Assembly: GCA_947624015.1 (NCBI GenBank) | Contig: CANQIA010000003.1 | Span: forward strand, 101,541 to 133,540 | DNA length: 32,000 nucleotides | Reading direction: 5' to 3' | DNA from: an uncultured Clostridia bacterium | Lineage (GTDB): Bacteria > Bacillota > Clostridia > Lachnospirales > CAG-274 | Part shown: one piece after another, positions 4,781 to 25,780 of the stretch | Position numbering within the stretch: the stretch's first letter is position 1 | Layout of the letters: the number at the start of each line of letters is the position of its first letter | Position numbers and translations under genes: made by a program | Notes under the pieces: generated by a model | What the model was told of the DNA's origin: nothing | What the model saw: the letters and a program-made list of their open reading frames with translations, nothing else | Databases searched by the model: none

Positions 4781-4784
4781 AAAT

Positions 4785-5852: not shown

Positions 5853-6179
5853 TATTTTTGATTTTATCAAAGCTCATGTTTTGAAACATATTTATTTTTC
5901 CGAAATTTGTATAAAGAAGATGGTAATAAATAGGTTTGGCGTGTGATCAGGTAACTAAGAATTTTTTCCATTACATTATTATAAGCATATATTTGGTCAA
6001 TGTTGCCATAATTTCTATATTAAAACCGGTGCAAAATAATTTGCTATGATGGTTAATATCCGATCACGCTTGTATCTGCAACGCAAAAATATATATATCT
6101 TATACATATAATATAAAATTGCAATGTAAAAATAGATGTAAAACTTAAAATTTATAACATCTCACAAAGGAGTAAAAAC

Positions 6180-7121: not shown

Positions 7122-7137
7122 AAAAGGAGCTTATGCT

Positions 7138-8658: not shown

Positions 8659-8749
8659 GAAAAATTTATATAAGTAATGTTTTCGATCAGTAATTAAGAA
8701 AAATATATATTTTACTATCAATATAAAGTCCGAAAAAGGAGAATTACAT

Positions 8750-9799: not shown

Positions 9800-9819
9800 T
9801 ACATAAAGAAGGTAAAATT

Positions 9820-10764
9820 ATGATGGATAAAAATTCTAAGATATATGTAGCAGGTCATAGAGGAATGGTAGGTTCGGCTATTGTAAGAGAGCTTGAAAGA
9901 CAGGGATATACAAATATTATTACGAGGACTCATGCCGAGCTTGATTTATGCAGACAAGCCGATGTCGAGAAATTCTTTTCTGAAGAAAAGCCCGAATATG
10001 TTTTTCTGGCTGCCGCAAAGGTAGGCGGAATTGTTGCCAACCAAAACGCATTGGCAGACTTTATGTACGACAATATGATACTTGAAATGAATGTGATACA
10101 TTCAGCATGGCAGAATGGGTGTAAAAAGCTGGAGTTTTTAGGCTCCTCTTGCATTTATCCTCGTATGGCTCCACAGCCTATGCAGGAAAGCTGTTTGCTC
10201 ACATCGGAGTTGGAAAAGACCAATGAAGCATATGCCCTTGCGAAAATTTCCGGTCTTAAATATTGCGAATTTCTCAACAGACAGTATGGCACCGATTACA
10301 TAAGCGTTATGCCTACTAATCTGTACGGTCCAAATGATAATTATCATCCTGTTCACAGCCATGTACTTCCGGCGCTTATACGTCGCTTCCACGAAGCTAA
10401 GGAACAGGGACTTGGATCTGTGACCTGTTGGGGTGACGGTTCGCCGTTAAGAGAATTTTTGTATGTGGATGACCTTGCTGACCTCTGCGTATTCCTTATG
10501 AATAACTACAGCGGAAATGAAACTGTAAATGCAGGTACAGGCGAGGAGCTTACAATAAAGGAGCTTACAGAGCTTGTGGCTGATGTTATAGGGTATAAAG
10601 GCGAGATCAAGTGGGATACTTCAAAGCCTAACGGTACTCCAAGAAAGCTCCTGGATGTTTCCAAAGCCACAAAATTAGGATGGACATACAAGACGGAATT
10701 AAAAGATGGAATAAAGATGTCCTATGAGGATTTTCTCAATAATCCCATGAGGGCAGAAAGATAA
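9820..10764 (+). CDS. fcl: GDP-L-fucose synthase (GDP-4-keto-6-deoxymannose 3,5-epimerase/4-reductase)
   Basis: KIYVAGHRGMVGSAIVRELERQGY, AAAKVGGIVANQ, YALAKISGLKYCE and PTNLYGPNDN. Lies immediately downstream of gmd. Confidence 0.95.
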   Translation: MMDKNSKIYVAGHRGMVGSAIVRELERQGYTNIITRTHAELDLCRQADVEKFFSEEKPEYVFLAAAKVGGIVANQNALADFMYDNMILEMNVIHSAWQNGCKKLEFLGSSCIYPRMAPQPMQESCLLTSELEKTNEAYALAKISGLKYCEFLNRQYGTDYISVMPTNLYGPNDNYHPVHSHVLPALIRRFHEAKEQGLGSVTCWGDGSPLREFLYVDDLADLCVFLMNNYSGNETVNAGTGEELTIKELTELVADVIGYKGEIKWDTSKPNGTPRKLLDVSKATKLGWTYKTELKDGIKMSYEDFLNNPMRAER

Positions 10765-10783
10765 ATACAGGGAGAGAATGTAT

Positions 10784-12100
10784 ATGAATATTATATTGCT
10801 ATCGGGAGGCTCAGGCAAAAGACTGTGGCCATTGTCAAACGATATACGTTCCAAGCAGTTCATAAAAATATTCAAAACAGATGACGGCACATATGAATCT
10901 ATGGTTCAACGAGTATATCGTCAGATAAAAAACATAGACAAAAATGCAAACATAACAATAGCAACCTCAAAAACACAGGTTTCGGCTATACATAATCAGC
11001 TTGGCGAAGATGTAGGCATATCTGTTGAGCCTGCAAGACGTGATACATTTCCGGCTATTGCTCTTGCGACGTCATATCTTTACGACGTGCGGGGAATCTC
11101 GGAAGATGAAGCTGTTGTTGTATGCCCTGTTGACCCTTATGTTGAGGATGATTACTTTAGGGCATTAAAAGCACTTTATGAACAGGCGAAAAAAGGCGAA
11201 GCCAATATTGTACTTATGGGTATAAAGCCTACATATCCAAGTGAAAAATATGGTTATATCATACCCGAAAGCAGCGACAGTATAAGCAAGGTTTCTACCT
11301 TTAAGGAAAAACCCGATGAAGCGACAGCCAAAAAGTATATAAACCAAGGAGCATTATGGAATGGCGGTGTGTTCGCATATAAGCTTAAATATGTGCTTGA
11401 CAAAGCCCATGAGCTTATAGATTTTACGGATTATGAGGATCTGTTTTCAAAGTACGATACTTTGGACAAAATAAGCTTTGACTATGCTGTTGCGGAGAAG
11501 GAAAAAATCATACAGGTAATGCGTTTTTCGGGACAGTGGAAGGACTTGGGTACCTGGAATACTTTAAGCGAGGCTATGGGCGAAAATACCGTTGGCAGCG
11601 CTATTATGAATGATAAATGCAATAACGTGCATATTATAAACGAGCTTGATGTACCTGTGCTTGCTATGGGTTTGAATGATGTTATTATATCAGCCAGTCC
11701 CGAAGGAATACTTGTATCCGATAAGGAACAGTCCAGTTATATCAAGCCCTATGTAGATGATATAGATCAGCAGATAATGTTTGCGGAAAAATCCTGGGGA
11801 AGTTTCAGAGTGCTTGATGTTGAGGAAGAAAGCCTTGCTATAAAGGTAACTCTTAACGCAGGCAATAGTATGAATTACCACAGTCATAGAAACAGAAACG
11901 AGGTTTGGGTAGTTATTTCGGGGGAAGGTCGTACAGTTGTAGACGGTATGGAGCAGGAGGTCAGCACAGGTGATGTTATAACAATGCAGGCAGGCTGTCG
12001 GCATACTGTTATTGCTACAACGGAGTTGAAGCTTATAGAAGTACAGTTGGGCAAGGAGATAAGTGTTCATGACAAGCAAAAATACCCACTTGAGCAATAA
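10784..12100 (+). CDS. manC: Mannose-1-phosphate guanylyltransferase with C-terminal cupin domain
   Basis: NTP-transferase loop MNIILLSGGSGKRLWPLS and a C-terminal cupin (GNSMNYHSHRNRNEVWVVISGEG...GDVITMQAGCRHTV). SD GGGAGAG favours ATG 10784 over 10778. Confidence 0.9.
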   Translation: MNIILLSGGSGKRLWPLSNDIRSKQFIKIFKTDDGTYESMVQRVYRQIKNIDKNANITIATSKTQVSAIHNQLGEDVGISVEPARRDTFPAIALATSYLYDVRGISEDEAVVVCPVDPYVEDDYFRALKALYEQAKKGEANIVLMGIKPTYPSEKYGYIIPESSDSISKVSTFKEKPDEATAKKYINQGALWNGGVFAYKLKYVLDKAHELIDFTDYEDLFSKYDTLDKISFDYAVAEKEKIIQVMRFSGQWKDLGTWNTLSEAMGENTVGSAIMNDKCNNVHIINELDVPVLAMGLNDVIISASPEGILVSDKEQSSYIKPYVDDIDQQIMFAEKSWGSFRVLDVEEESLAIKVTLNAGNSMNYHSHRNRNEVWVVISGEGRTVVDGMEQEVSTGDVITMQAGCRHTVIATTELKLIEVQLGKEISVHDKQKYPLEQ

Positions 12101-13076
12101 ACCATTTTTGCTTAAACCTGCAGGAAAAGACTATATATGGGGCGGTAGCAGATTAAACGATGATTTTGGCAAGGGAATACCTATGGAACCACTTGCCGAA
12201 ACATGGGAGTGTTCTACTCATCCCGATGGACCAAGCATTGCAATAAGTGGCGAATACAAGGGAATAACCTTAACACAAATTATTAAAGAGAATCCCGAAT
12301 ATTTGGGAACACATCCATCAACAAAAAATGAAATGCCAATACTTATAAAGCTTATAGATGCAAAAAAAGATCTGTCTGTACAAGTGCATCCCGATGATAA
12401 CTATGCAAGGAAAAATGAAAACGGACAGCTTGGCAAAACGGAAATGTGGTATGTTCTCGATGCGACAAAAGACGCAAAACTTATATATGGTTTAAAACAC
12501 GATACAACAGCCGACAAGCTAAGAAAAAGTATCGAAAACAGAACTATTGAAAAACATCTTCAAAAAATTTCCATAAAAAAGGACGATGTTTTTTATATAG
12601 AAGCAGGAACTATCCATGCAATAGGCGCAGGCGCTCTTATAGCGGAAATACAGGAAAATTCCAATATAACCTACAGGTTGTATGACTATGACCGCACAGA
12701 CAAAAGCGGAAATAAAAGGCAACTGCATATAAATAAGGCTCTTGAAGCTGCCAATTTAAAAAGCAGTAAAGAGCCTGTACAGCCAATGAGAGTGCTGAAA
12801 TATCGGCAAGGCTGCGCATCTGAATTATTGTGCAGATGTAAATATTTTGAGGTATACAGAATGCTTTTGAATACAGAGAGATGCAGAAAATATGTAGGAT
12901 ATCAGGCAGACAGCACCTCTTTCAGAGTTTTATTATGCATAAACGGATGCGGAACAATGCTTTTGGACAATAATGAGGTAATAAGCTTTTTTAAAGGAGA
13001 CTGTATATTTGTGCCTGCAGAGTCTGTAAAGATAAGGTTGCATGGTAAGGCGGAATTTTTAGATGTAAGGGGATAA
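12069..13076 (+). CDS. manA: Mannose-6-phosphate isomerase, class I
   Basis: PMI-I metal/active-site motifs LSVQVHPDD, KTEMWYVL and GTIHAIGAG. SD AAGGAGA (12053-12059) is 9 nt before ATG 12069. The gene overlaps the manC 3' end. Confidence 0.9.
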   Translation: MTSKNTHLSNKPFLLKPAGKDYIWGGSRLNDDFGKGIPMEPLAETWECSTHPDGPSIAISGEYKGITLTQIIKENPEYLGTHPSTKNEMPILIKLIDAKKDLSVQVHPDDNYARKNENGQLGKTEMWYVLDATKDAKLIYGLKHDTTADKLRKSIENRTIEKHLQKISIKKDDVFYIEAGTIHAIGAGALIAEIQENSNITYRLYDYDRTDKSGNKRQLHINKALEAANLKSSKEPVQPMRVLKYRQGCASELLCRCKYFEVYRMLLNTERCRKYVGYQADSTSFRVLLCINGCGTMLLDNNEVISFFKGDCIFVPAESVKIRLHGKAEFLDVRG

Positions 13077-13082
13077 TTGTTT

Positions 13083-14255
13083 ATGAAAACTAAAGAATAT
13101 TTTTTACATTTGCTTTCATCATACATAAACAATAATCCACCTATGGAAGAAAACTCAATTGATTGGAATGAAATACTTTATCTTGCACAGATACATTCTG
13201 TACAGAGTATTATATATATAAGTATAAATAAACTAAAAAATAAACCTCCTATATATGATAAGCTAAAAGAATTGTTCTACATATCTGTAAATTTATCCAT
13301 AACACAGGATGTATTGATGAAAAATGTAATCGATGCCCTTACTGAAAATGGTATTGATCATATGCTTATGAAAGGCTACATATTGAAAAATTATTATCCT
13401 GATAAAGAAGCAAGAACTTTTGGAGATATTGATTTTCTTATAGATGAAAGGGATCGAGAGAAGTGCGATGCAGTTCTTAAAAATATAGGATTTGAATTTG
13501 TTGAGGAAGAATATGTCAAAGAAGTATGGGTATATAGAAAAAGACAAGTTACGCTTGAAGTTCACACAGAAATAATATACGAAAAGCTGTTTTTTGATAT
13601 TGACTACAGAAATTTTTTCCATGATAAAGTAAAAAATAAGCAGCTTATAGCAGATAATACCTATGAACTTAAAAAGGAAGATCATTTCATTTATTTGCTT
13701 GTTCATCTGGCGAAACATTTCTATAATGCAGGTGTGGGAATAAGAATGTTTATGGATATAGCTGTTATGCTAAACAAATTTGGCAAAGAGCTTGACTGTA
13801 AATATATTTATACTGAAATTGAAAAGCTTAGACTTACAAAGTTTGCAAATATAGTTTATTTTATATGCAAAAAATATTTTAATTCCAATATTGATTGCCG
13901 TGATATAACTAGAAATGAAGAAAATATAATTATGGCGTATATACTAGATCATGGAATTTTTGGATTTGAAAATAAAGATTACTTTGATATTCTATATCAT
14001 AAAAATGATGATAGCAAATTATCTACTATAAGAAAAAGACTTTTTCCGGATTATGAATACATGAAAGGGCACAATAAGTGGTTTTATAATGGTAAACGGA
14101 TAATGCTTCCATATGCATGGAGCAGACGTTTACTTGGACATCTACTCAAAAAGAATAAGAGGAAAGAAATAATAGATAAATTGAACGTCGCCATAAAGTG
14201 TGGTAATGATTTTCAAAAACATAATAACATACTGAATATGGTTGGGTTAAAATAA
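13083..14255 (+). CDS. Uncharacterised nucleotidyltransferase-fold protein (pol-beta type, NTP_transf_5-like), paralog 1
   Basis: KGYILKNYYPDKEARTFGDIDFLIDERD fits the hG..(x)..DxD pol-beta nucleotidyltransferase signature. Clearly homologous along its whole length to the gene at 21868-23064. Starts 7 nt after the manA stop (ATG 13083; TTG 13077 is also possible). Confidence 0.65.
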   Translation: MKTKEYFLHLLSSYINNNPPMEENSIDWNEILYLAQIHSVQSIIYISINKLKNKPPIYDKLKELFYISVNLSITQDVLMKNVIDALTENGIDHMLMKGYILKNYYPDKEARTFGDIDFLIDERDREKCDAVLKNIGFEFVEEEYVKEVWVYRKRQVTLEVHTEIIYEKLFFDIDYRNFFHDKVKNKQLIADNTYELKKEDHFIYLLVHLAKHFYNAGVGIRMFMDIAVMLNKFGKELDCKYIYTEIEKLRLTKFANIVYFICKKYFNSNIDCRDITRNEENIIMAYILDHGIFGFENKDYFDILYHKNDDSKLSTIRKRLFPDYEYMKGHNKWFYNGKRIMLPYAWSRRLLGHLLKKNKRKEIIDKLNVAIKCGNDFQKHNNILNMVGLK

Positions 14256-14280
14256 GAAATATGTTTAATGAGGTGATGAT

Positions 14281-15402
14281 TTGAAAGTATTGTTTTTAAC
14301 AAACTATCCATCTCCATATAAAGTAGATTTTTTTAATGAATTAGGGAAAAAATGCGATTTGACAGTTACATTTGAAGAAACTCCGGAAGAACAAACACAC
14401 AGAAATAAAAATTGGTTTCATACAAATTATGATAATTTCAATGCCATTTTTTTAAACAAAATAAGATTAGGGAAACCACATAAACAGATAGCATATGGAA
14501 TATTTAAATATTTAAATGATGATTTTGATTATATTATCGTTGGTGTGTATTCTACAATAACATCCATTATGGCAATTTTATACATGAAGTTAAAAAGAAT
14601 ACGATTCATAATTGAAAGTGATGGAGGCATACCTAAAAATAAAAAAAATATCACTGAAAAATTCAAAAAATTTTTGATATCTTCTGCATATGCATGGTTT
14701 AGCCCAAGCGGAGAAACAGATAAATATTTAATTACTTATGGAGCACAAAAGTATAATATAATCCGATATCCATTTACTACTTTGCACAAAAATGATATTT
14801 TAAAAAATTTACCCGATAAGACATATGTAAATCAATGCAGACAAAAGATAAAACTGACAAAGAAATATGCAATTGTTACTATAGGACAATTTATACATAG
14901 AAAGGGATTTGATATTCTAATTGAAGCTATATCAAAAATGCGCAATAAAGATTGTGCTTTTTATATTATTGGTGGAAAACCAACGCAGGAATATTCCGAG
15001 CTTATTCAAAAATTAAATTTATATGATATTTATTTTATTGATTTTATGGAACAAGAAAAATTAAAGGATTATTTTATTGCGGCAGATATTTTTGTGTTAC
15101 CTACACGAGAAGATATTTGGGGATTGGTAATAAATGAGGCAATGGCATTTGGATTGCCTGTTATAACTACTAATAGATGTGTTGCAGGCTTAGAAATGAT
15201 AAAAAGCCATAGAGATATATGTCTTATTAATATTAATGATGCCGAAATGCTTGCACAATCTATGGATACGTTGCTTATTGATGATAGTTTAAGAATATCT
15301 TTAGCTATGGAAAATCTGAAAATATCCCTTAATTATACCATAGAAAGAATGGCAGATTCTCATATTGATTATTTTAAAGCTCATAGTCATTCTGTAAATT
15401 AG
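14281..15402 (+). CDS. Glycosyltransferase family 4 (GT-B)
   Basis: C-terminal lobe RKGFDILIEAISKM, FYIIGGKP and EDIWGLVINEAMAFGLPVITTNRCVAG. TTG start with SD GAGGTGA at 14270-14276. Confidence 0.85.
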   Translation: MKVLFLTNYPSPYKVDFFNELGKKCDLTVTFEETPEEQTHRNKNWFHTNYDNFNAIFLNKIRLGKPHKQIAYGIFKYLNDDFDYIIVGVYSTITSIMAILYMKLKRIRFIIESDGGIPKNKKNITEKFKKFLISSAYAWFSPSGETDKYLITYGAQKYNIIRYPFTTLHKNDILKNLPDKTYVNQCRQKIKLTKKYAIVTIGQFIHRKGFDILIEAISKMRNKDCAFYIIGGKPTQEYSELIQKLNLYDIYFIDFMEQEKLKDYFIAADIFVLPTREDIWGLVINEAMAFGLPVITTNRCVAGLEMIKSHRDICLININDAEMLAQSMDTLLIDDSLRISLAMENLKISLNYTIERMADSHIDYFKAHSHSVN

Positions 15403-15448
15403 CTTTATTTAATGCCAATATAATATAATTCATTAAGGAGGGAATAAA

Positions 15449-16492
15449 GTGAGTAATATAAAAAGGAATTCAGGTATAGAATTGCTTAGAATTATCTGCG
15501 TTATCTTGATTATTTGTCATCACTATTCTTTCCATGGGGGCTTCCTTCAATTTTCTTACGATGATATTGGCTTAAATATAATTTTTATTCAAATGTTAAA
15601 TATGTTTGGAAAGGCTTCTTGTTCTGTGTTTGCATTAATATCAGGATATTTTTTGATCAATGCAAAGAATGACATTAATTACTATAAGAAAATTGTTAAT
15701 TTAATATTTGAAATGTTCTTTTATTCGGTATTGATATTATTTATCGCTTTATTAACAAGAGCCGTTCCTATATCCGGAGTAGCTGTTGTTAAGGCTCTTT
15801 TTCCTATATTTTGGGGCAATTGGTATGTTATTTTTTATATAATTCTTTATTTAATTGTACCTTTTATAAATCCGGGACTCAAAGCTATGAATAAGAAAGA
15901 ATATACACTATTTTTAATGCTTTTATTATTTATATGGTGTATTGTTCCAACATTTACAGGTACAGCTTAGGAAATGTGTTCAATGGATTTCTTTATAGTT
16001 ATGTATCTTATTGGCGCATATATAAGATTATATATAAAAAGTATTTATAGTAATAGAAGAAAAATATTTTTGTGTTTGGTTTTGTCAACCCTTATAATGC
16101 TTTTAACCGTTCCCGTAATTGATTTTATTGGAAAAATATTAAAAGCAAACGTTATAATAAACCATGCAACATATTTTATGAAATATAATTCTATTATTTC
16201 TGTGGTGTGGGCAGTATCTGTATTTTTGTTCTTTTGTACTTTAAAATTCAAAAGCAATATAGTAAATTATATTGCAGGGTCAGTACTTGGAATATATCTT
16301 ATACATGACAATTTTATTTTAAGACAATATATATGGCAAGTAATTTACCCTAACAGTAATTATATAGAATTTCCATATATCCATGCTGCGACAAAAATAT
16401 TCTCGGTATTTGCTATATGTCTTATTATAGATATACTTAGAAGAATAACTATAGAAAAAGTATTCAATAGCTGTTTAAGAAATTTATTTTAA
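15449..16492 (+). pseudogene. Acyltransferase family 3 (polysaccharide O-acyltransferase) interrupted by a single in-frame TAG
   Basis: The two track ORFs (15449-15970 and 15974-16492) are in the same frame, separated only by TAG 15968-15970 plus one codon (...PTFTGTA*EMCSMDFFIVMYLIGAYIRLY). Together they give a ~345-aa, ~10-helix protein with the N-terminal acyltransferase-3 motif (IELLRIICVILIICHHY). GTG start with SD AAGGAGGG. The second half has no convincing SD of its own. Confidence 0.8.
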
Positions 16493-16746
16493 CTAAATTT
16501 CTTTAGTGTTGAAGTAAAGCATTCACATATCTTCTTACAAATAATTTAATTAAAAATTTGATTTAGTATATATAGGGATCAATATTATTACATATAAGAA
16601 AATAATTTTGTTCAAATTGGATATGTGTAAATTAAAACATATTCATGAGCAGTTATAAAGAAAAATTATTTTTACGGTTTTATGGATTGCAAACAAATGT
16701 AACCGATTTCCCGAATTTATTTGAAAATTTATATGGAGATTCGAGC

Positions 16747-17547
16747 ATGAAAAAAATAACATCTGAAGAAATGAAAGCCTTACAAGTCAATATACTTATT
16801 GATTTTGCAAAATTTTGTGATAAAAACAATCTGCATTATACATTAGGATACGGAACACTTTTAGGAGCTATAAGGCATAAAGGCTTCATACCGTGGGATG
16901 ATGATATTGATGTATTTATGCCACGACCTGACTACGAAAAGTTTATTAATATAATACGGGGAAATAAAATTTCTCCTTTTATAGATGTTATCTCATATAA
17001 ATTTGGCAATAGCACATACCCATTTATAAAACTTATAGATAATCGTACAGAAGTAGAAGAAAAATTTGTAAAGGATGTAAGAATTGGTGTATGGATTGAT
17101 ATATTTGCTATTGATGGAAATTTTAATAATAGTTTTCTTAGTATGCTCCATTACAAAACAGCAGCGCTCATAAGAAAAGTAGTTGAAATCAAAAGAAATA
17201 ATTTTGGCTCGGGAACAACAACGACAAAGAGAATTTTAAAAAGCTTTATATATCCTTTTACTATATTCTTTTCTTTTGATTTTTTATTAAAAACAATGGA
17301 TAGAGTATGTTGTTTAAGAAAATATGATAAAAGTAATTATATAGGATGCGTTGTTTGGGGATATGGCAGCAGAGGGCGAATTGAGAAGAAAGGTTTTTTT
17401 GAATGCATAGATGTGGAATTTGAAGGACATATTTTTAAAGTCACATCAAATTATGACAAATATTTAAAAAATATATACGGAAACTATATGCAGCTTCCAC
17501 CTGAGAATAAACGTATTAAACACAATTATGAAGCTTGGTGGAAATAA
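16747..17547 (+). CDS. licD: LicD-family phospho(no)-alcohol transferase
   Basis: LicD core LGYGTLLGAIRHKGFIPWDDDIDVFMPRPDYEKF with a typical N-terminal LQVNILIDFAKFCDKNNLHY. SD GGAGA precedes ATG 16747; the track's upstream extension from 16645 is not LicD-like. Confidence 0.85.
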   Translation: MKKITSEEMKALQVNILIDFAKFCDKNNLHYTLGYGTLLGAIRHKGFIPWDDDIDVFMPRPDYEKFINIIRGNKISPFIDVISYKFGNSTYPFIKLIDNRTEVEEKFVKDVRIGVWIDIFAIDGNFNNSFLSMLHYKTAALIRKVVEIKRNNFGSGTTTTKRILKSFIYPFTIFFSFDFLLKTMDRVCCLRKYDKSNYIGCVVWGYGSRGRIEKKGFFECIDVEFEGHIFKVTSNYDKYLKNIYGNYMQLPPENKRIKHNYEAWWK

Positions 17548-17571
17548 AATATAGCGTAAAGGAGTAAACCA

Positions 17572-19581
17572 ATGAAAGCATTAATATTAAACTCAGGCTT
17601 AGGTAGTCGCATGGGAGTCCTTACCTCAGAGCATCCCAAATGCATGACCGAGATTTCAAGCAGAGAAACGATTTTAAGCAGACAGCTTAAACAGCTTGCA
17701 GACGCAGGTATAAACGAAGTGATAATGACAACGGGACTTTTTGACGGTGTTCTTGTGGACTACTGCCACAGTCTTGACCTGCCTTTACATATCACATTCA
17801 TTAAAAATCCAAAATACAAGGCAACAAACTATATTTATTCCATTTACTGTGCAAAGGATCATCTTGACGATGACATTGTTCTTATGCACGGTGATATTGT
17901 ATTTGAGAATGAAGTTTTTGACAAGCTTATTGCCTGTGAAGAAAGCTGTATGGTTGTAAGCTCTACCCTTTCACTTCCCGAAAAGGATTTTAAAGCCGTT
18001 ATACAGAATGGTCTTATCAAAAAAATAGGTATTGAGTTCTTTAATGAGGCTATGGCTGCACAGCCCTTATATAAGCTGAATAAAGAGGATTGGAAGGTAT
18101 GGCTTGACAGTATTGTTTCCTACTGTGAAAGCGGTAAGACTGACTGCTATGCTGAAAATGCCTTTAACGATGTTTCAGGTAAATGCAAGTTATTCCCTCT
18201 TGATGTTAAAAATATGCTCTGTAATGAGATAGACAACCCGGAGGACTTGGCTGTCGTATCATCAAGGCTTAAAGAAATAGAAAACAGGACTGTGTATATG
18301 TGCTTTTCAACAGACATCATACACAGCGGTCACATTGATATAATCAAAAAGGCTGAAAGGCTTGGCAAGCTAATTATAGGCGTTTTATCCGATAAAGCTA
18401 TATCAAGCTACAAGAGATTTCCCCTTCTTCCCTTTGAGGAAAGAAAAACTATGTTCAAAAATATAGCAGGGGTTTACGATGTTGTGGAACAGAAAAATCT
18501 CAGCTATAAGGAAAATCTCGAAAAATATCAGCCCGATTATGTAGTGCATGGTGATGACTGGGTATCAGGTTTTCAGAAGCCTATAAGAGATGAGGTCGTA
18601 TCAATACTTGCTTCCTATGGCGGAATACTTGTAGAGTATCCCTATTCCAACGATGAAAAATACAAGGCTCTCGACGACAGAGCAAGAGCTGACTTATCTC
18701 TGCCCGATATAAGACGTGCAAGGCTTAAAAAAGCTCTTGATATGAAGGGGACTATTACGGCTATGGAGGCTCACAGTGGTATAACAGGACTTATAGTTGA
18801 AAAAACAAAGGTATACCAGAATGGCGAAACACACGAATTTGACGCTATGTGGATAAGCTCTCTCTGTGATTCTACGGCAAAGGGAAAACCCGATATCGAG
18901 CTTGTAGATATGACATCCCGTTTCCGTACCATTGACGACATCATGGAGGTCACTACAAAACCTATCATATTTGACGGAGATACAGGCGGACTTACGGAGC
19001 ACTTTGTATACACGGTAAAGAGCCTTGAGCGTATGGGCGTTTCAATGGTAATAATAGAGGACAAGACAGGTCTTAAAAAGAACTCCCTCTTTGGTACGGA
19101 AGTTGAACAGACTCAGGACAGTATAGAAAACTTCAGCGCTAAAATAGCCGCAGGCAAGAAAGCTCAGAAAACAAAGGACTTTATGATATGCGCCCGTATT
19201 GAGAGCCTTATACTTGAAAGAGGTATGGAGGACGCATTGGAAAGAGCCTTTGCATTTACCGTGGCGGGAGCAGACGCCATTATGATACACAGCAGGAAAA
19301 AGGACCCTGCTGAGATATTTGAATTTGTTGAAAAATTCAGAGAAAAGGACAAGACTACACCTATCGTTGTTGTCCCCACTTCCTTCAATACGGTTACGGA
19401 GGAGGAGTTCAAAGAACACGGTGTAAACATAATCATATATGCAAATCAGCTTACAAGGACAGGCTTCCCCGCTATGCAGAATGCAGCTAGGACTATACTT
19501 GAAAATCACAGGGCTAAGGAATGTGATGATATGTGTATGTCAATAAAGGACATAATAACGCTTATTCCCGAAGAAGGCTGA
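17572..19581 (+). CDS. Three-domain fusion: LicC/PntC-like nucleotidyltransferase + HxGH cytidylyltransferase-like domain + phosphoenolpyruvate phosphomutase
   Basis: aa 1-~240 MKALILNSGLGSRMG... (LicC-type NTP-transferase). aa ~245-375 CFSTDIIHSGHIDIIKKAERLG (HSGH at nt 18322-18333; TagD/ECT-type fold). aa ~380-669 belong to the isocitrate lyase/PEP mutase superfamily and carry the Ppm-diagnostic EDKx5NS motif (EDKTGLKKNS, nt 19057-19086). SD AAAGGAG. Confidence 0.9.
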   Translation: MKALILNSGLGSRMGVLTSEHPKCMTEISSRETILSRQLKQLADAGINEVIMTTGLFDGVLVDYCHSLDLPLHITFIKNPKYKATNYIYSIYCAKDHLDDDIVLMHGDIVFENEVFDKLIACEESCMVVSSTLSLPEKDFKAVIQNGLIKKIGIEFFNEAMAAQPLYKLNKEDWKVWLDSIVSYCESGKTDCYAENAFNDVSGKCKLFPLDVKNMLCNEIDNPEDLAVVSSRLKEIENRTVYMCFSTDIIHSGHIDIIKKAERLGKLIIGVLSDKAISSYKRFPLLPFEERKTMFKNIAGVYDVVEQKNLSYKENLEKYQPDYVVHGDDWVSGFQKPIRDEVVSILASYGGILVEYPYSNDEKYKALDDRARADLSLPDIRRARLKKALDMKGTITAMEAHSGITGLIVEKTKVYQNGETHEFDAMWISSLCDSTAKGKPDIELVDMTSRFRTIDDIMEVTTKPIIFDGDTGGLTEHFVYTVKSLERMGVSMVIIEDKTGLKKNSLFGTEVEQTQDSIENFSAKIAAGKKAQKTKDFMICARIESLILERGMEDALERAFAFTVAGADAIMIHSRKKDPAEIFEFVEKFREKDKTTPIVVVPTSFNTVTEEEFKEHGVNIIIYANQLTRTGFPAMQNAARTILENHRAKECDDMCMSIKDIITLIPEEG

Positions 19582-19593
19582 CAAGGAGAAAAT

Positions 19594-20706
19594 ATGAGTG
19601 AGCAGATCATTATAAGGACAGACGGAAACTATGATGAATTGAATACATATCTTGAAAACAAGGGTATTAAGAGGATATTTCTTGTATGTGACAGCTCAAT
19701 AGGCTTTCTCGGAATAAACAGCTTTTTTGAAAGCCTTAAAAATATCTATGTTACAAGATTCAGTGACTTTGAGCCAAATCCATTGTATGAGTCTATTGTT
19801 AAGGGTGTTGACGCATTTAACAAAGAAAAATGCAATTGTATCATAGCTGTAGGCGGCGGAAGCGCAATAGATGTTGCCAAGTGCATAAAGCTATATTCTC
19901 CTATGGATAAAAGCAAAAATTATCTGGAACAGAAAATAGTACCCAATGACATACCGTTTATAGCTGTTCCCACGACTGCCGGAACAGGCAGCGAAGCAAC
20001 AAGGTTTGCCGTTATATATTACAAGGGAGAAAAGCAGTCTGTAACGGATATAAGCTGTATTCCCGATGCAGTTCTTATGGATAGTTCCGTACTTGACACA
20101 CTGCCAATATATCAAAGAAAAGCCACAATGCTTGACGCTCTCTGTCATTCCGTAGAATCCTTTTGGTCTGTAAATTCAAATGACGAAAGCAAGGAATATT
20201 CCAAGAAAGCTCTTGAAATGATCATAGGAAATATGGACTCATATCTGACGAATGACAAAGACGGCAATACAGCCATGATGGAGGCGGCGCACCTTGCAGG
20301 CAAGGCTATAAATATAACCCAGACAACGGCAGCACATGCTATGTGCTATAAGCTTACAAGTCTTTATAAAATAGCCCATGGTCACGCTGCGGCATTGTGC
20401 TTGCCTGTACTGTGGGAATATATGCTAAGCAACATGGATAAATGTATTGACAGCAGAGGCAAGGTCTATCTTAAAGCTGTTTTTGACGATATTGCCAAGG
20501 TTTTGGGCTGTGATACACCGATAAAGGCTGTGGAAAAGCTTAAAGCAATAATAAACAGCTTGGAATTGCCGATACCAACAGCAGATGAAAAGGACTTTGA
20601 AATATTAAGAACGTCCGTAAATCCCATTAGGCTAAAAAATAATCCTATTGCATTGGATACCGATGCCATTGACGAAATATATCACAGAATACTTAATACG
20701 AAATAA
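19594..20706 (+). CDS. Group III iron-containing alcohol dehydrogenase, probable phosphonoacetaldehyde reductase (2-hydroxyethylphosphonate-forming)
   Basis: Fe-ADH signatures AVGGGSAIDVAKCIK, VPTTAGTGSE and the His cluster AAHAMCYKLTSLYKIAHGHA. Sits between the Ppm and Ppd genes, where PhpC/FomC/DhpG-type reductases occur. The family call is strong; the substrate call rests on context. Confidence 0.75.
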   Translation: MSEQIIIRTDGNYDELNTYLENKGIKRIFLVCDSSIGFLGINSFFESLKNIYVTRFSDFEPNPLYESIVKGVDAFNKEKCNCIIAVGGGSAIDVAKCIKLYSPMDKSKNYLEQKIVPNDIPFIAVPTTAGTGSEATRFAVIYYKGEKQSVTDISCIPDAVLMDSSVLDTLPIYQRKATMLDALCHSVESFWSVNSNDESKEYSKKALEMIIGNMDSYLTNDKDGNTAMMEAAHLAGKAINITQTTAAHAMCYKLTSLYKIAHGHAAALCLPVLWEYMLSNMDKCIDSRGKVYLKAVFDDIAKVLGCDTPIKAVEKLKAIINSLELPIPTADEKDFEILRTSVNPIRLKNNPIALDTDAIDEIYHRILNTK

Positions 20707-20721
20707 TCGGAGGAGTTGTAT

Positions 20722-21849
20722 ATGAAAGCAGAAAGTTTAGTCAGAATAATAGGTTCGGATTTTTATACGGGCGTACCGGATTCACAGATAAAGGCGCTTT
20801 GCAATTATCTTATGAATACATACGGCATAGATCCTAAGCATCACTTAATAGCGGCAAATGAAGGCAACTGTACCGCTCTTGCGGCAGGCTATCATCTTGC
20901 CACGGGGAAAGTGCCTGTTGTATACATGCAGAACAGCGGCGAGGGAAATATAATAAACCCGGTCGCATCGCTTCTCAATGACAAGGTTTATGCCATACCC
21001 TGTATATTTATAATAGGATGGAGAGGAGAGCCGGGTATTCACGATGAGCCTCAGCACATATATCAGGGCGAAGTGACCGTAAAGCTCCTTGAGGATATGG
21101 ATATAAAGCCTTTCATAATTGGCACGGATACCACCGATGAAGAAGTTGAAAAGGCTATGTCCGATTTCAGAGAGATATTAGCAAAGGGCAAAAGCGTTGC
21201 CTTTGTAATACGCAAGAACGCTCTGACCTACGACGGAAAAGTCAAGTACGAAAACGATAATAAAATGGTCAGAGAGGAAATAATACAGCATATAGTCAAA
21301 TATACAGGCGAAGACCCTGTTGTTTCAACTACGGGAAAGGCAAGCAGAGAGCTTTTTGAAACCAGAGTTGCAAACGGTCAAAGCCATAAATACGACTTCC
21401 TTACGGTAGGTTCTATGGGACACAGTTCATCCATAGCTTTAGGTATTGCCATAAACAAGCCCGATACAAAAATATGGTGTATTGACGGGGACGGGGCTGT
21501 GCTTATGCATATGGGTTCTATGGCGCTTATGGGCGCAAATGCTCCCCAAAATATGGTGCATATAGTTATAAATAACGGCGCTCATGAAACCGTAGGCGGT
21601 ATGCCGACTGTGGCTGAAAAGATAAACCTTGTTGAGATCGCAAGAGCTTGCGGTTATCCCAATGCTATATGCGTTGACAACTTTAACGACCTTGACAAAG
21701 AGCTTGAAAAAGCAAAGGTCAAAAACGAACTGAGCTTCATTGAGGTAAAGTGTTCCATAGGTGCAAGGGATGATCTTGGCAGACCTACTACTACTGCATT
21801 GGAGAATAAAGAATATTTTGTTGGTTATCTTAAAGAGCTCAGCAATTAG
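20722..21849 (+). CDS. ppd: Phosphonopyruvate decarboxylase (ThDP-dependent)
   Basis: Single-chain Ppd/AepY-like protein: FYTGVPDSQIK and ANEGNCTALAAGYHLATGK in the N-terminal half, and ThDP motif GDGAVLMHMGSMALMG...VINNGAHE. SD GGAGGAG favours ATG 20722 over TTG 20716. Confidence 0.9.
   Translation: MKAESLVRIIGSDFYTGVPDSQIKALCNYLMNTYGIDPKHHLIAANEGNCTALAAGYHLATGKVPVVYMQNSGEGNIINPVASLLNDKVYAIPCIFIIGWRGEPGIHDEPQHIYQGEVTVKLLEDMDIKPFIIGTDTTDEEVEKAMSDFREILAKGKSVAFVIRKNALTYDGKVKYENDNKMVREEIIQHIVKYTGEDPVVSTTGKASRELFETRVANGQSHKYDFLTVGSMGHSSSIALGIAINKPDTKIWCIDGDGAVLMHMGSMALMGANAPQNMVHIVINNGAHETVGGMPTVAEKINLVEIARACGYPNAICVDNFNDLDKELEKAKVKNELSFIEVKCSIGARDDLGRPTTTALENKEYFVGYLKELSN
21671..21813 (+). repeat. 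143-nt near-identical direct repeat, copy A (inside the intact ppd 3' end)
   Basis: Manual alignment to 23991-24133 (offset 2320) gives 141/143 identical. The differences are at 21727 (G vs A) and 21760 (G vs A). Confidence 0.9.
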
Positions 21850-21867
21850 AATTATTTTTCGGGGTTT

Positions 21868-23064
21868 ATGATGAATAATAAAATTTATTTTTTGAAGCTG
21901 CTTAAATCATATATATATAATAAAAAAATAGAATATGATGAAAATGTTGACTGGTTCGAAATTCTAAGACTTGCGAATATTCATTCTGTTCAGTGTATGA
22001 TATATCTAGCTATTGATAAATTGGATAAAAGACCTCCTATCTATGATGAGTTAAAAAAACTTTTTTTAAAAACTGTACAGATCTCAACTCTTCAGGAAAT
22101 AGGTATGAAGCAAACAATAGCAACGCTTAACGATAATTGCATTGAACATATACTTATAAAAGGATATGTACTTAGAAACTATTATCCTAATAAGGAAGTT
22201 AGGAGTTTTGGCGATATTGATATTCTGGTCGATGAAAGCGATATAAAAAAAGCCAATAATGCTCTTTTAAATATTGGTTTTGAATTCAATGAGGATAAAT
22301 CGGAAAATGCTGTGCAAACATATACAAAAGGTATCTTATGTTTGGAAATGCATACAGACCTAATATATGAACGACTGTTCAACGATTTTGATTATATCAA
22401 CTATTTTCGAGAGAAAATAAAAAATAAAGAGCATGTCAAAAATTATACTTATACATATGAACTCAAAAAAGAGGATCATTTTATATATATTCTTGTTCAT
22501 CTTGCCAAGCATTTTTATAACATCGGTGCAGGAATAAGAATGGTTCTGGATATAGTTGTATTTTTAAATAAATTTGGCAAAGTAATTGATTTTAAATATA
22601 TAGAAAACGAGCTTGACTCTATACAGCTCAAATATTTTTCTAATGTTATTTTTTATATTTGCAAAAAATACTTTGATACGGATATTGAATGTACACCGAT
22701 CGATGATAAGAAATTAGAACAGATAATTGATTATATTTTGGAACATGGTGTATTTGGCTTTGACAATATAGCGGTGCAGAGCGTTATGCTTAGGAACAAC
22801 GGAGATAAAGGTATCAAGTTATTTTTAAAAATGATGTTTCCTGATATGGCAGTTATGACAAGGATCTATCCATGGTTCAAAAACGGCAATAAATATATGC
22901 TTCCTTATGCATGGTTAAGGAGATGGTTATATCTGCTTACTAACAAAAATAAACGAAATGAAATTGGAACAAAGCTATCTGCTATTATGGATGATGATAT
23001 AGATGTAAATAAACATACTGAAATGATAAAATCTTTTGGACTAAAGCAAGATCGTCATACATAA
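21868..23064 (+). CDS. Uncharacterised nucleotidyltransferase-fold protein (pol-beta type, NTP_transf_5-like), paralog 2
   Basis: KGYVLRNYYPNKEVRSFGDIDILVDESD. Collinear with paralog 1 (shared blocks IHSVQ, KPPIYD/RPPIYD, YELKKEDHFIY.LVHLAKHFYN.G.GIRM, MLPYAW). Starts 18 nt after the ppd stop. Confidence 0.65.
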   Translation: MMNNKIYFLKLLKSYIYNKKIEYDENVDWFEILRLANIHSVQCMIYLAIDKLDKRPPIYDELKKLFLKTVQISTLQEIGMKQTIATLNDNCIEHILIKGYVLRNYYPNKEVRSFGDIDILVDESDIKKANNALLNIGFEFNEDKSENAVQTYTKGILCLEMHTDLIYERLFNDFDYINYFREKIKNKEHVKNYTYTYELKKEDHFIYILVHLAKHFYNIGAGIRMVLDIVVFLNKFGKVIDFKYIENELDSIQLKYFSNVIFYICKKYFDTDIECTPIDDKKLEQIIDYILEHGVFGFDNIAVQSVMLRNNGDKGIKLFLKMMFPDMAVMTRIYPWFKNGNKYMLPYAWLRRWLYLLTNKNKRNEIGTKLSAIMDDDIDVNKHTEMIKSFGLKQDRHT

Positions 23065-23261
23065 ACCGAAATTATATAAATATATATTGCAGGTTTCGAT
23101 GGATATAAAAATAGCAGAAATTTTGTTATACCACAGTTAGAAGTAAGGGTAACAAAACAAATAAGAAAATCTCAATTTATGATGACTCAGATCCCGGTAT
23201 CTATTAAAAAGATAATCAGATTTATTTTGTTATGCCTTCTTTTTTATGAGGAGAATAAATA

Positions 23262-23780
23262 ATGGATTTAAAAAAACTGAACTATTTAGTCATAGATGTT
23301 GATGGAACAATGACCGACGGTGGGATTTATTATGATGAGAACGGAAGCGAAATAAAAAAATTTAATACCAGGGATGCGGCAGGCTTTTTTGCTGCAAAAG
23401 CGGCAGGAATAAAAATAATTGTACTGACGGGCAGAGAGTGTGCGGCTACGACCCGAAGAATGAATGAGTTAAAGGTTGATTTTATTTTTCAGAACATAAA
23501 AAACAAAAAAGAATTCTTGTCAGTGTTTATGGAAGAAAAGAATATCGTCAGAAAAGAAATTGGTTATATAGGCGATGATCTCAATGACCTTGCGCCAATG
23601 AAGCTAACGGGATATATAGCTTGTCCATCCGACAGTTGTCGGGAAATAAAAGATATAGCTGATTATATAAGCTCCAATAAAGGCGGTCATGGCGCAGTAC
23701 GGGATATAATAGAACACATATTGCGCGAGCGTGGAATATGGAATAAAGTTGTATCAGAAATTTATATGAGCGGTATATAA
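23262..23780 (+). CDS. HAD-IIIA phosphatase of the KdsC/YrbI family (3-deoxy-ulosonate phosphate phosphatase-like)
   Basis: Motif I VIDVDGTMTDG, then NTRDAAG, the motif III/IV region IGDDLNDL, and the C-terminal GGHGAVRD typical of KdsC/KDN-9-P phosphatases. SD GAGGAG. Confidence 0.8.
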   Translation: MDLKKLNYLVIDVDGTMTDGGIYYDENGSEIKKFNTRDAAGFFAAKAAGIKIIVLTGRECAATTRRMNELKVDFIFQNIKNKKEFLSVFMEEKNIVRKEIGYIGDDLNDLAPMKLTGYIACPSDSCREIKDIADYISSNKGGHGAVRDIIEHILRERGIWNKVVSEIYMSGI

Positions 23781-23932
23781 GAATTAATAAAAAGGATAAA
23801 TTATGTTTTAGAAATATAAACAGAAATTAACAATTTAAGTCTTAATGTGATTAAAAATAAAGTTTTTTATATACTTGGAGAAGTGTAACTGACATTGATG
23901 TAGAAAAGGGGTTAATATCAACAAAATCGCCC

Positions 23933-24166
23933 AAAGTAGATTATAGCAATGTGATAATAGCAAAAGCCTGCGGTTGTCTAAATGTAGTGTGCGTTGACAA
24001 CTTTAACGACCTTGACAAAGAGCTTGAAAAAGCAAAGGTCAAAAACAAACTGAGCTTCATTGAGGTAAAGTGTTCCATAAGTGCAAGGGATGATCTTGGC
24101 AGACCTACTACTACTGCATTGGAGAATAAAGAAAACTTTATGGATTACATAGAAAAATTGAAATAA
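23933..24166 (+). pseudogene. 3' remnant of a second phosphonopyruvate decarboxylase gene
   Basis: Translation (...KVDYSNVIIAKACGCLNVVCVDNFNDLDKELEKAKVKNKLSFIEVKCSISARDDLGRPTTTALENKENF...) matches only the last ~75 residues of the intact Ppd (EKINLVEIARACGYPNAICVDNFNDLDKELEKAKVKNELSFIEVKCSIGARDDLGRPTTTALENKEYF). There is no N-terminal or ThDP-binding part and no SD. Confidence 0.8.
23991..24133 (+). repeat. 143-nt near-identical direct repeat, copy B (inside the ppd remnant)
   Basis: 141/143 identical to 21671-21813. The flanks diverge abruptly (24 of 34 nt identical immediately upstream; poor similarity downstream). Confidence 0.9.
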
Positions 24167-24304
24167 TAAAAATGTAATATAAGCATGGTATGTTCTTCAA
24201 GGGGTTGTACTTTGGGATTTTTAGAATATTTTTTGCAAACCACCGAGCTTGTGCTTAATATTGTTTACAAGGTAAAGTATAGATATTTTTTGATGAATTT
24301 AACT

Positions 24305-24336
24305 ACGGCATCCGATTTAGATATATCGAATGCCGT
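24305..24336. terminator. Strong hairpin between convergent units (possible bidirectional terminator or RNA stabiliser)
   Basis: acggcatccgat (24305-24316) pairs with atcgaatgccgt (24325-24336): 11 bp plus one C/A mismatch, 8-nt loop. It lies between the + strand ppd remnant and the stop of the - strand gene (24396). Neither side has a clear U-tract, hence the low confidence. Confidence 0.35.
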
Positions 24337-24395
24337 AAAGCTATATAATATTAATATTGAGTATTTATACAAATTTAATTATTTATAATTTCAAC

Positions 24396-25730
24396 TCAGC
24401 AATAATTAACTTGATCTTTCCAGCTCTGCCACAATATAAGAGAGGAAGCACTACTTGGTACCATATCAAACCATCTAAACTTATTTTCAAAGCTTATGCG
24501 GCTATTGTCGTTATATTTATAATTTAAAAATCTTCCGGAAATACCATCAGGTAATATGCATATAAAATTAGAATCAAAATCTGCTGTGTTTAAAAAATAA
24601 ATATAGTCTCCATCTCTTGTAAGATTAGGATTTTCATGCTTATATTCTACTAGAGTATTAAATTTCATATATACTTGTTCGGATGTAATATTTAATTTTA
24701 TATAAATAAGTAATTGTGGTTTACCTCCTTCTACTAAATTCCTGTAAATATATATTATTTTGCACTTATCAATATTATTATTGTCTATATTTAGTTCATC
24801 CTTGGCTTCTTTTTTTATTGCATTATAAATTCCATCCTTTATATCCTTAGCTTCCTTTATATATTTATATTTAAAAGATGCTTGAACACCTAGCCCTAAA
24901 TTATCTTTTTCTACGGAAAGATTTTTGGAGCGTTTTACAAATACTATTTTTTCATCAATTGTTTCTACTACTGCATTAAAGCCCAAATGATTTGATAATT
25001 TAGAATCGCTTAATGAACCTACTGAATTATCTAAAACAAATAGCTTTCTAAGATTAATGTTTCCATTAATTCTAAAATCCATAGCCCTGTTTGTAATAAG
25101 GGAATAAAAATATTGGGTTTCTCCCAAGTATACTTTTATAAAGTTTTTGTCTTTATCTATATGATTTACCCGATATAATTTGTTGTTATATTTTGTACTT
25201 TGTGAATGAGCTGAGAATAAAAAATTATGATTTTCAATTGAAAAGATAGGCGGCTTGTATTTTTTATCACTTTCAAATTCAAATAATAATATATTCTCGT
25301 CTATAATAATATATTCAGGTATAAGAGGACTTTTAATTTCTGCCCCATATGTACAATTTGAGACATTATTTGTGTGCTTTTTTGCTAATTTAAGATTTCT
25401 TTTGCTTACGCATTTCTGGGTATATTTCATTAAATTATCTTTGCTATAAATTTCACATAGTTTAGCATAATCTTCTGAAAGCTTATCGCTATCTTCTAAT
25501 ATTTTTTTAAAAAAATTAAAACAAAAGATATATACTATCAATGCAGCAAACAAAGTTGCCAAAATGTTAATAGTAAATGTGTACGCTATGCTATTTTTAT
25601 AGGCACGAAAAAAATACATTGCAGATGCTATAATTATGATAATTATAGTTACAAGAGCATATGTATATTGCCCCTTTTCACTAAATTTCCTAAGAAATCT
25701 ATATATTCTGTTTTTATTTTTTCTTCTCAT
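24396..25730 (-). CDS. Hypothetical membrane-anchored protein (N-terminal 2 TM helices + ~350-aa soluble region with a degenerate Nudix-like motif)
   Basis: SD AAGGAGG (25738-25744) lies 7 nt before ATG 25730 (MRRKNKNRIYRF...). Two hydrophobic helices (YALVTIIIIIIASAMYFF; FTINILATLFAALIVYIFCFNFF). The C-terminal region LGFNAVVETIDEKIVFVKRSKN...GLGVQASF...AIKKEAKDELNI resembles the Nudix fold entry and box (Gx5Ex7REUxEExGU) with substitutions at conserved positions. No family is confidently recognised. Confidence 0.8.
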   Translation of the reverse strand: MRRKNKNRIYRFLRKFSEKGQYTYALVTIIIIIIASAMYFFRAYKNSIAYTFTINILATLFAALIVYIFCFNFFKKILEDSDKLSEDYAKLCEIYSKDNLMKYTQKCVSKRNLKLAKKHTNNVSNCTYGAEIKSPLIPEYIIIDENILLFEFESDKKYKPPIFSIENHNFLFSAHSQSTKYNNKLYRVNHIDKDKNFIKVYLGETQYFYSLITNRAMDFRINGNINLRKLFVLDNSVGSLSDSKLSNHLGFNAVVETIDEKIVFVKRSKNLSVEKDNLGLGVQASFKYKYIKEAKDIKDGIYNAIKKEAKDELNIDNNNIDKCKIIYIYRNLVEGGKPQLLIYIKLNITSEQVYMKFNTLVEYKHENPNLTRDGDYIYFLNTADFDSNFICILPDGISGRFLNYKYNDNSRISFENKFRWFDMVPSSASSLILWQSWKDQVNYC

Positions 25731-25752
25731 GACATATCCTCCTTTAACTAAC

Positions 25753-25780
25753 ATTATAACACATTTTTTTATTAAATCAA
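25753..25780 (-). promoter_or_regulatory. Sigma-A-type promoter for the 2-TM gene
   Basis: On the - strand: -35 TTGATT (25780-25775), 16-nt spacer, extended -10 TGT-TATAAT (TATAAT = 25758-25753). This predicts a very short leader ending in the AAGGAGG SD. Confidence 0.5.

Follow-up and report, generated by a model that had tools for sequence, protein, structure and literature searches.

We analysed a 32-kb stretch of DNA from an uncultured Clostridia bacterium (contig CANQIA010000003.1 of assembly GCA_947624015.1), hereafter the window, in which four phosphonate genes lie within a polysaccharide locus. In plus-strand order these encode a LicD-family phosphotransferase (16747-17547), a triple-fusion phosphoenolpyruvate (PEP) mutase of 669 aa (17572-19581), a group III iron/zinc-type alcohol dehydrogenase (ADH) of 370 aa (19594-20706; Pfam Fe-ADH and ADH_Fe_C), and a phosphonopyruvate decarboxylase (Ppd, or AepY; 20722-21849), with intergenic gaps of 24, 12, and 9-15 nt. 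A first-pass annotation had described four co-directional, tightly spaced genes of these families; the arrangement holds, and Pfam or NCBIfam profile searches agree with each family assignment. We consider it likely that this module decorates a fucose-containing surface polysaccharide with 2-hydroxyethylphosphonate (HEP).

The mutase protein has three domains, delimited by Pfam, NCBIfam, and PDB sequence matches. Its C-terminal PEP mutase (Ppm) domain (residues 382-669, 18715-19581) scores 402.6 bits against TIGR02320, above the equivalog cut-off of 319.55, and matches the PDB PEP mutases 5unc and 1m1b with E values of about 1e-37; it carries the Ppm motif EDKxxxxxNS as EDKTGLKKNS (residues 496-505, window positions 19057-19086), just as first annotated. 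The protein had then been called a nucleotidyltransferase-fused PEP mutase. The fusion stands, but the single nucleotidyltransferase (NTase) domain gives way to two, of the NTP_transf_3 and CTP_transf_like families. The second of these (residues 238-360, 18283-18651; PF01467, CTP_transf_like) most resembles the cytidylyltransferase (CyTase) domain of Fom1 (PDB 5x3d; E = 2e-37, 49% identity over 121 aa), an ethanolamine-phosphate cytidylyltransferase (ECT) being the second-best PDB match (E = 1e-15), and it contains an HxGH motif, HSGH, at residues 251-254 (18322-18333). The Fom1 CyTase is a characterised HEP cytidylyltransferase that converts HEP and cytidine triphosphate (CTP) to the cytidine monophosphate (CMP) conjugate CMP-HEP (PMC6697681). 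The N-terminal domain (residues 1-235, 17572-18276; PF12804, NTP_transf_3, and PF00483) is LicC/PntC-like, matching the LicC structure 1jyk at E = 9e-10 and Tde-PntC at a distant E = 7e-5. In Tde-PntC, Glu104 and Glu196 contact the amine of 2-aminoethylphosphonate (AEP), and the alignment covers the first of these. Because the position aligned to Glu104 is an invariant histidine (His106), we have not filed this domain as an AEP-specific PntC. Its motifs GxGxR (here GLGSR), HPK, MHGD, and EIDxPEDL are kept in 78 orthologues. Averaged over residues, conservation in this set is 0.72 in the N-terminal and 0.78 in the CyTase domain, and the motifs of both are intact.

Ppd, for which the open reading frame (ORF) tool opens at a TTG at 20716, scores 458.4 bits against TIGR03297 (equivalog cut-off 312.5) and has the thiamine diphosphate-binding motif GDG-x25-NN at residues 256-285 (21487-21576), so that the earlier call of a thiamine diphosphate-dependent Ppd with a GDG...NN motif is confirmed. 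LicD scores 148.9 bits against PF04991 (cut-off 22.6) and contains WDDDIDV, a motif of the DxD type. Its ORF opens at 16645 (16645-17547), and a GGAGA motif lies 8 nt before the ATG at 16747; because of this motif and the typical length of LicD proteins, we favour 16747, the start chosen in the first-pass annotation, as the likely true start.

Since family hidden Markov models (HMMs) do not discriminate among ADHs of this kind, we used residue-level comparison and gene context to assign the ADH. In an alignment to the structure of a sulfoacetaldehyde reductase (6jko), D181, H185, H248, and H262 fall on the metal ligands, the first two having been located in the window sequence itself, while K147, T244, and Y252 are the equivalents of Lys157, Thr256, and Tyr264 of PhpC; R346 probably corresponds to Arg349, an equivalence drawn from conservation and not from structural alignment. 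These four PhpC residues form a phosphonate clamp known from modelling, and Tyr264 is reported to be strictly conserved in PhpC and to be Phe in sulfoacetaldehyde reductase (PMC13576164). The same alignment places a His at this position in methanol dehydrogenase 8zrl. Across 76 orthologues from related cassettes, K147, T244, H248, Y252, and H262 never vary, and conservation of R346 is 97%. Moreover, the ADHs that RefSeq names "phosphonoacetaldehyde reductase" in Segatella copri DSM 18205 and on Fulvitalea axinellae pFA2 are 50% and 38% identical, respectively, to the window ADH. We propose that the ADH is a phosphonoacetaldehyde reductase of the PhpC type, which would make HEP. In some Bacillota, PhpC homologues act in HEP catabolism (PMC13576164), and an alternative would be a catabolic cluster in which the ADH oxidises environmental HEP to phosphonoacetaldehyde for phosphorus scavenging. 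We give this reading next to no credence, as the window has no PhnX, PhnA/PhnY, or transporter and the ADH gene lies between those for the biosynthetic enzymes Ppm and Ppd within a glycan locus.

Conservation of the cassette and fusions of its nucleotidyltransferase

We scanned one genome per species in GTDB with the triple fusion as query; at least 586 loci encode a close relative. In the best 80, nearly all from gut or rumen Clostridia, the triple fusion is 75-97% identical to that of the window. ORF clustering of these 80 loci, each taken as 22 kb, places the triple fusion in 79 species-level loci, where it is followed by the ADH in 76 and accompanied by a detected Ppd in 72; most of the misses for either gene are short contigs or contig ends. 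The next most common neighbour is LicD (24 loci), no other family exceeds 17 loci, and the remaining surroundings are variable glycan genes. No aminotransferase is co-conserved in the 79 loci, the sole aminotransferase-like cluster, DegT-like as judged by eye, being present in four. A gene-neighbourhood comparison of mutase loci in Clostridia had been suggested as a check in the first-pass annotation, and it shows a fixed mutase-ADH-Ppd unit.

For the transferase step we considered the 47 well-flanked loci, of which 15 have LicD within 8 kb of the cassette and 28 have a phosphotransferase of either the LicD or the TagF family (PF04464) within that distance. Both families take donors activated with CMP or cytidine diphosphate (CDP). 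Two related phosphonate loci encode large multidomain proteins: one of 1287 aa joining Fe-ADH, Glyphos_transf, and MptE-like domains (L094, 11681-15544), and one of 932 aa joining LicD and Glyphos_transf (L092, 3580-6378).

The triple-fusion gene is present in the cultured strains [Clostridium] symbiosum ATCC 14940, Hungatella hathewayi DSM 13479, Ruminococcus flavefaciens 007c (a homologue from a protein search), and S. copri DSM 18205. ADH and Ppd genes adjoin it in C. symbiosum, H. hathewayi, and S. copri, the three neighbourhoods examined. The S. copri copy (NZ_CP085933, 113520-139526; L083) is 78% identical to that of the window and lies on a secondary replicon of 167 kb, suggesting that the mutase gene has passed from one phylum to another in the gut; downstream of it are genes for an adenylation enzyme, a carrier protein, and an alanine racemase, which form a D-alanylation-like set. 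In H. hathewayi (NZ_CP102274, 247487-269490; L029), the Ppd gene of the first cassette is broken into two ORFs (13234-13566 and 13609-14358), and some 6 kb beyond it a second Ppd and ADH pair runs in the opposite direction. The metagenome-assembled genome Lapin-003-2__bin46 has two separate cassette loci (L027 and L034).

To place the N-terminal NTase domain, we searched it alone against 1.84 billion cluster representatives, which gave 210 matches at E<=1e-30. The main groups among the best 150 of these are 78 stand-alone proteins of 200-300 aa and 42 long proteins. A C-terminal ADH domain, 32-49% identical to the window ADH, is present in 40 of the 42 long proteins, and none of the 42 is fused to an aminotransferase. 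When the 40 fused ADHs are aligned with that of the window, the Lys, Asp, Thr, His, Tyr, His, and Arg positions are each kept in 40-41 of the 41 sequences. By Pfam, the architectures are NTase-ADH, NTase-CyTase-ADH, NTase-ADH-LicD, and NTase-ADH-LicD-LicD, with LicD fused to NTase-ADH in two proteins (P0190 and P0257). Five of the six fusions examined in their genomic context adjoin a CyTase-Ppm gene, four of these five also a Ppd gene, and LicD or TagF is usual; the sixth (L088, an NTase-ADH-LicD fusion) is on a contig of 6 kb with no visible Ppm. In one case (L093) the order is CyTase-Ppm, Ppd, NTase-ADH, LicD, and a stand-alone relative of 52% identity occurs in the order Ppd, NTase, CyTase-Ppm, ADH, the window arrangement in unfused form. 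This NTase subfamily is therefore physically coupled to the PhpC-like reductase and to LicD, and the fusions link the predicted steps of reduction, nucleotide activation, and transfer. Another of the NTase-ADH loci (L085) has an APS-kinase-like P-loop gene and a methyltransferase gene (9911-10429 and 11774-12817) among its NTase-ADH, CyTase-Ppm, and Ppd genes, which hints at further phosphonate tailoring in some lineages.

An ADH and a LicC-like NTase may also have counterparts outside phosphonate metabolism, among the products of the pneumococcal gtp genes, where the reductase Gtp1 is an Fe-ADH and Gtp2 is LicC-like. Pneumococcal CDP-2-glycerol synthesis and use by gtp1-3 follow the logic of reductase, cytidylyltransferase, and phosphotransferase (PMC1391919), so the ADH and the LicC-like NTase might form a separate polyol-phosphate activation route feeding LicD, with the phosphonate genes serving some other product. 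The NTase-ADH-LicD fusion on the contig without visible Ppm would fit such a route. Yet the window has no Gtp3-like glycerol phosphotransferase, phosphonoacetaldehyde would be left without a consuming enzyme, CyTase-Ppm genes are at hand in all NTase-ADH contexts but the one on that short contig, and the fused ADH domains keep the PhpC clamp residues. We regard this alternative as exceedingly unlikely.

A more familiar product than HEP would be AEP, which an aminotransferase gene in another part of the genome could supply, leaving the ADH with a side or salvage function. No surface phosphonate is commoner than AEP, to which 56% of ppm neighbourhoods belong, and PF01467-Ppm fusions are known from aminotransferase clusters too, for example in Bacteroides fragilis (PMC8942020). 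Our search for aminotransferases covered the window and the related loci. The first-pass annotation had noted that no aminotransferase is present in the 32 kb, and a Pfam scan of all ORFs of at least 300 aa across the window likewise returned no match to an aminotransferase family. Against AEP stand the constant position of an ADH with PhpC-type residues between Ppm and Ppd (76 of the 79 loci), the absence of an aminotransferase from the conserved cassette, the fusion of N-terminal NTase relatives to ADH and never, among the 42 long proteins, to an aminotransferase, and the invariant His in place of the amine-contacting Glu. AEP as the final phosphonate is thus very unlikely, and gene content and fusion contexts together disfavour it along with the CDP-2-glycerol and catabolic explanations.

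The surrounding polysaccharide locus

The co-directional locus runs on the plus strand from 107 to about 23780, its upstream part occupying 107-16492. Pfam assigns four GT4 glycosyltransferases (107-973, 997-2091, 4785-5852, and 14281-15402), an epimerase (3728-4780), and a DUF6492 protein (6180-7121). A Wzy-like membrane protein (2279-3673) has nine hydrophobic segments and no family match, and a Wzx-like flippase (7138-8658) has ten hydrophobic segments and scores 21.8 bits against Polysacc_synt, below the cut-off of 28.2. The block for synthesis of guanosine diphosphate (GDP)-L-fucose, also upstream of the phosphonate genes, consists of gmd (8750-9799; TIGR01472, 514 bits against a cut-off of 415), fcl (9820-10764; NF047922, 480 bits, slightly below the cut-off of 500), manC (10778-12100), and PMI (12063-13076), the last two by Pfam. 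At the end of this upstream part, the Acyl_transf_3 gene for an O-acyltransferase (15449-16492) is interrupted by an in-frame TAG at 15968-15970 with an ATG two codons later, giving two ORFs. The identical split occurs in matching metagenome contigs (L001 and L002), and the gene is probably a nonsense-inactivated O-acetyltransferase.

Two NTP_transf_5 paralogues (PF14907, "uncharacterised nucleotidyltransferase") are 50% identical to each other, and each stands directly 3' of a precursor block, one after the GDP-fucose genes (13077-14255) and the other after the phosphonate genes (21868-23064). Sequence searches of the PDB and NCBIfam returned no match to them, and homologues are present in only 10 of the 80 related loci. 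The last gene of the locus encodes a KdsC/YrbI-type HAD phosphatase (23262-23780; TIGR01670, 137.6 bits against a cut-off of 107), which lies near the cassette in the window and in none of the related loci; no synthase for 3-deoxy-D-manno-oct-2-ulosonate (Kdo) or a nonulosonate accompanies it in the window. As neither the downstream NTP_transf_5 nor the phosphatase is kept with the cassette elsewhere, a role for them in the phosphonate pathway is doubtful. Thiamine and feoB genes follow on the opposite strand, and a 452-aa protein on the minus strand (24396-25754) with two N-terminal hydrophobic segments has no Pfam or NCBIfam match, its exact sequence being absent from the protein collection.

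GC content is about 25-30% in the glycosyltransferase, Wzx, Wzy, and acyltransferase genes and about 38-44% in the GDP-fucose, phosphonate, and thi/feoB housekeeping genes (phosphonate about 40%, thi/feoB 42-44%). We considered and rejected a horizontally acquired island on this basis, since it is the glycosyltransferase, Wzx, and Wzy genes that are low in GC while the phosphonate genes match the housekeeping genes; the pattern is therefore that of the usual polysaccharide-locus mosaic. Promoter and terminator scans over 15300-24600 gave counts not above those in shuffled sequence and are uninformative on operon structure.

Proposed route to a decorated glycan

In the route that we favour, the C-terminal domain of the triple fusion would convert PEP to phosphonopyruvate, which Ppd would decarboxylate irreversibly to phosphonoacetaldehyde, to be reduced to HEP by the PhpC-type ADH. 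HEP would then be activated to CMP-HEP by the Fom1-like CyTase domain, the LicC/PntC-like N-terminal domain, or both, and LicD would use CMP-HEP as donor to place the HEP phosphonyl group on a hydroxyl of a sugar in a repeat unit that the neighbouring glycosyltransferases are predicted to build and the Wzx/Wzy-like proteins to export. The same sequence of intermediates, ending with transfer by LicD, had been put forward in the first-pass annotation, and it gains support on genomic grounds from the conserved cassette, the ADH residues, the identity of the CyTase domain, and the NTase fusions. The sequences themselves show that Ppm and Ppd are what they are called, how the domains are arranged, that the cassette is conserved, and that no ORF of at least 300 aa in the window is an aminotransferase. 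We infer the substrate of the ADH, the nucleotide, which of the NTase domains acts on HEP, the acceptor, and the type of polymer, which may be a capsule, an exopolysaccharide, or a wall polysaccharide.

Several observations weigh against this route. All of its support is genomic. The ADH scores 149 bits against TIGR03405 (Phn_Fe-ADH/PsrA), for which the cut-off is 424; it reaches no NCBIfam equivalog, and other ADH models score about alike. The reductases named as such by RefSeq in S. copri and F. axinellae likewise fall below the TIGR03405 cut-off. Given the PF01467-Ppm fusions in AEP clusters, similarity to Fom1 is no proof of HEP specificity, and an aminotransferase may be encoded outside the 32-kb window. 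BLAST detected neither LicD nor TagF in 19 of the 47 well-flanked loci. The window has no initiating phosphoglycosyltransferase, and for export the Wzx-like protein is weakly assigned and the Wzy-like one is assigned by hydrophobicity. Finally, both NTase domains are conserved although a simple route needs one, and F. axinellae apparently manages with the CyTase alone.

The last of these points bears on a further explanation, in which HEP is made and activated as proposed and the head group or its linkage is something more elaborate than a terminal HEP ester. We think this unlikely, as we do its specific form, in which the two NTases activate two substrates (for example glycerol phosphate as the second) or use two nucleotides; with a second substrate, the product could be HEP-glycerol units or a teichoic-acid-like chain bridged by phosphonate. 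Redundancy, different nucleotides, and a second substrate are all possible reasons for the pair. The strong conservation of both domains and their catalytic motifs in the 78 orthologues fits the more complex linkage, and a LicC-like NTase and a CyTase are found together in every examined HEP-type module that has a LicC-like NTase, whatever the fusion pattern. Many related loci, moreover, have TagF-family, polymerase-like enzymes or several LicD genes. Partial hydrolysis of the actinomycete phosphonoglycans by Yu and colleagues in 2014 reportedly yielded the mono(2,3-dihydroxypropyl) ester of HEP. The window, however, has a single LicD and neither TagF, a glycerol-3-phosphate pathway gene, nor a kinase; on F. 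axinellae pFA2, which has CyTase-Ppm, Ppd, ADH, and LicD, no LicC-like NTase occurs up to 8 kb away; and both NTase classes have a phosphonate precedent, Fom1 with HEP and PntC with AEP (PMC6697681). We offer it as a tentative and rather improbable suggestion that the two NTases point to an undescribed second activation step, with HEP set within a mixed phosphonate/phosphate or polyol-linked unit. Why two NTases should be needed is a defined biochemical question under the favoured HEP route as well.

If HEP decoration is correct, HEP-bearing surface glycans would be common, not rare, in the Clostridia of the mammalian gut and the rumen, adding a stable, negatively charged, and phosphatase-resistant epitope to the surface structures of gut commensals. 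They would also provide a concrete biological source of the HEP at which dedicated catabolic pathways of Bacillota, Fibrobacterota, and other phyla appear to be aimed (PMC13576164). Were the HEP part of a complex unit, such polymers from the abundant Clostridia of gut and rumen could contribute a large and so far overlooked share of the HEP in the environment.

Comparison with known phosphonate systems

The first-pass annotation had regarded a HEP-decorated glycan in such an anaerobe as undescribed. We found no chemical characterisation of a HEP glycan from Clostridia in the accessible literature, coverage of which is incomplete, and to that extent the statement agrees with the record; nor did we find anything relevant in the literature on phosphonates in Lachnospiraceae or Clostridia or in newer work on PntC. 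The novelty of the locus had nonetheless been overrated: a catalogue of triple fusions dates from 2019 and one of HEP-type neighbourhoods from 2022, and RefSeq annotates equivalent loci. HEP-type (PhpC) neighbourhoods make up 8.5% of ppm neighbourhoods (PMC8942020), and "phosphonoglycans" (BGC0000806) are among the biosynthetic gene clusters shared across mammalian orders in a gut metagenome survey (PMC11448209). What may be new is how common the cassette is among Clostridia of the gut and rumen, that it occurs in Segatella too, and that the fusion data appear to tie a LicC-like NTase subfamily specifically to the HEP branch. The flagellin type A glycan system of Clostridioides difficile, also considered as a relative, is unrelated, because C. 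difficile lacks pepM.

Published HEP glycans come from two actinomycetes, Glycomyces and Stackebrandtia (PMC8942020, PMC13576164), and not from a myxobacterium and an actinomycete as first noted. The actinomycete phosphonoglycan clusters (MIBiG BGC0000806) share with the window a pepM-ppd-Fe-ADH core inside a polysaccharide locus, and their chemically proven product is an exopolysaccharide to which HEP is esterified. They differ in phylum and in glycan.

The Streptomyces fosfomycin pathway uses the same chemistry up to CMP-HEP, with Fom1 (CyTase-Ppm), Fom2 (Ppd), and FomC (ADH). The CyTase of Fom1 is likewise fused N-terminally to Ppm and is the protein to which the middle domain of the window mutase is 49% identical. 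In fosfomycin synthesis, CMP-HEP is transient, being methylated by Fom3 and hydrolysed by FomD; the window, by contrast, has no radical-SAM methylase and no FomD, and instead has an adjacent LicD and an additional LicC-like domain.

Two Bacteroidota loci are also close to the window in gene content. In S. copri DSM 18205 (NZ_CP085933), RefSeq annotates aepX, aepY, and the reductase beside a TagF-family gene, Wzy, and Wzx, with aepX encoding the same triple fusion. The genes on F. axinellae pFA2 are those for CyTase-Ppm (aepX), aepY, the reductase, and LicD, the LicC-like domain being absent. Both sets are embedded in or adjoin glycan genes and have the order Ppm-Ppd-ADH, whereas that of the window is Ppm-ADH-Ppd.

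The same logic as in the window underlies the Pnt pathway of oral anaerobes, represented by the NTase-Ppm, Ppd, and PntC-AEPT of Treponema denticola (Rice et al. 2019, PMC6697681): Ppm, Ppd, an enzyme converting phosphonoacetaldehyde, activation with CMP, and LicD-like transfer to a surface glycan. Each system has a pair of NTases per cluster, one of them fused or linked to the enzyme making its substrate, and the PntC-AEPT fusion of the AEP branch is paralleled by the NTase-ADH fusions of the HEP branch. The Pnt aminotransferase, which leads to AEP, is replaced in the window by the PhpC-like reductase, which would lead to HEP. Rice et al. (2019) also counted, giving no role, 42 triple fusions of PF12804, PF01467, and PF13714, or 2.8% of RefSeq Ppm proteins (PMC6697681). 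These have the same architecture as the window mutase. Here such fusions are tied to a fixed ADH-Ppd cassette, and matching loci number at least 586 in species-representative genomes.

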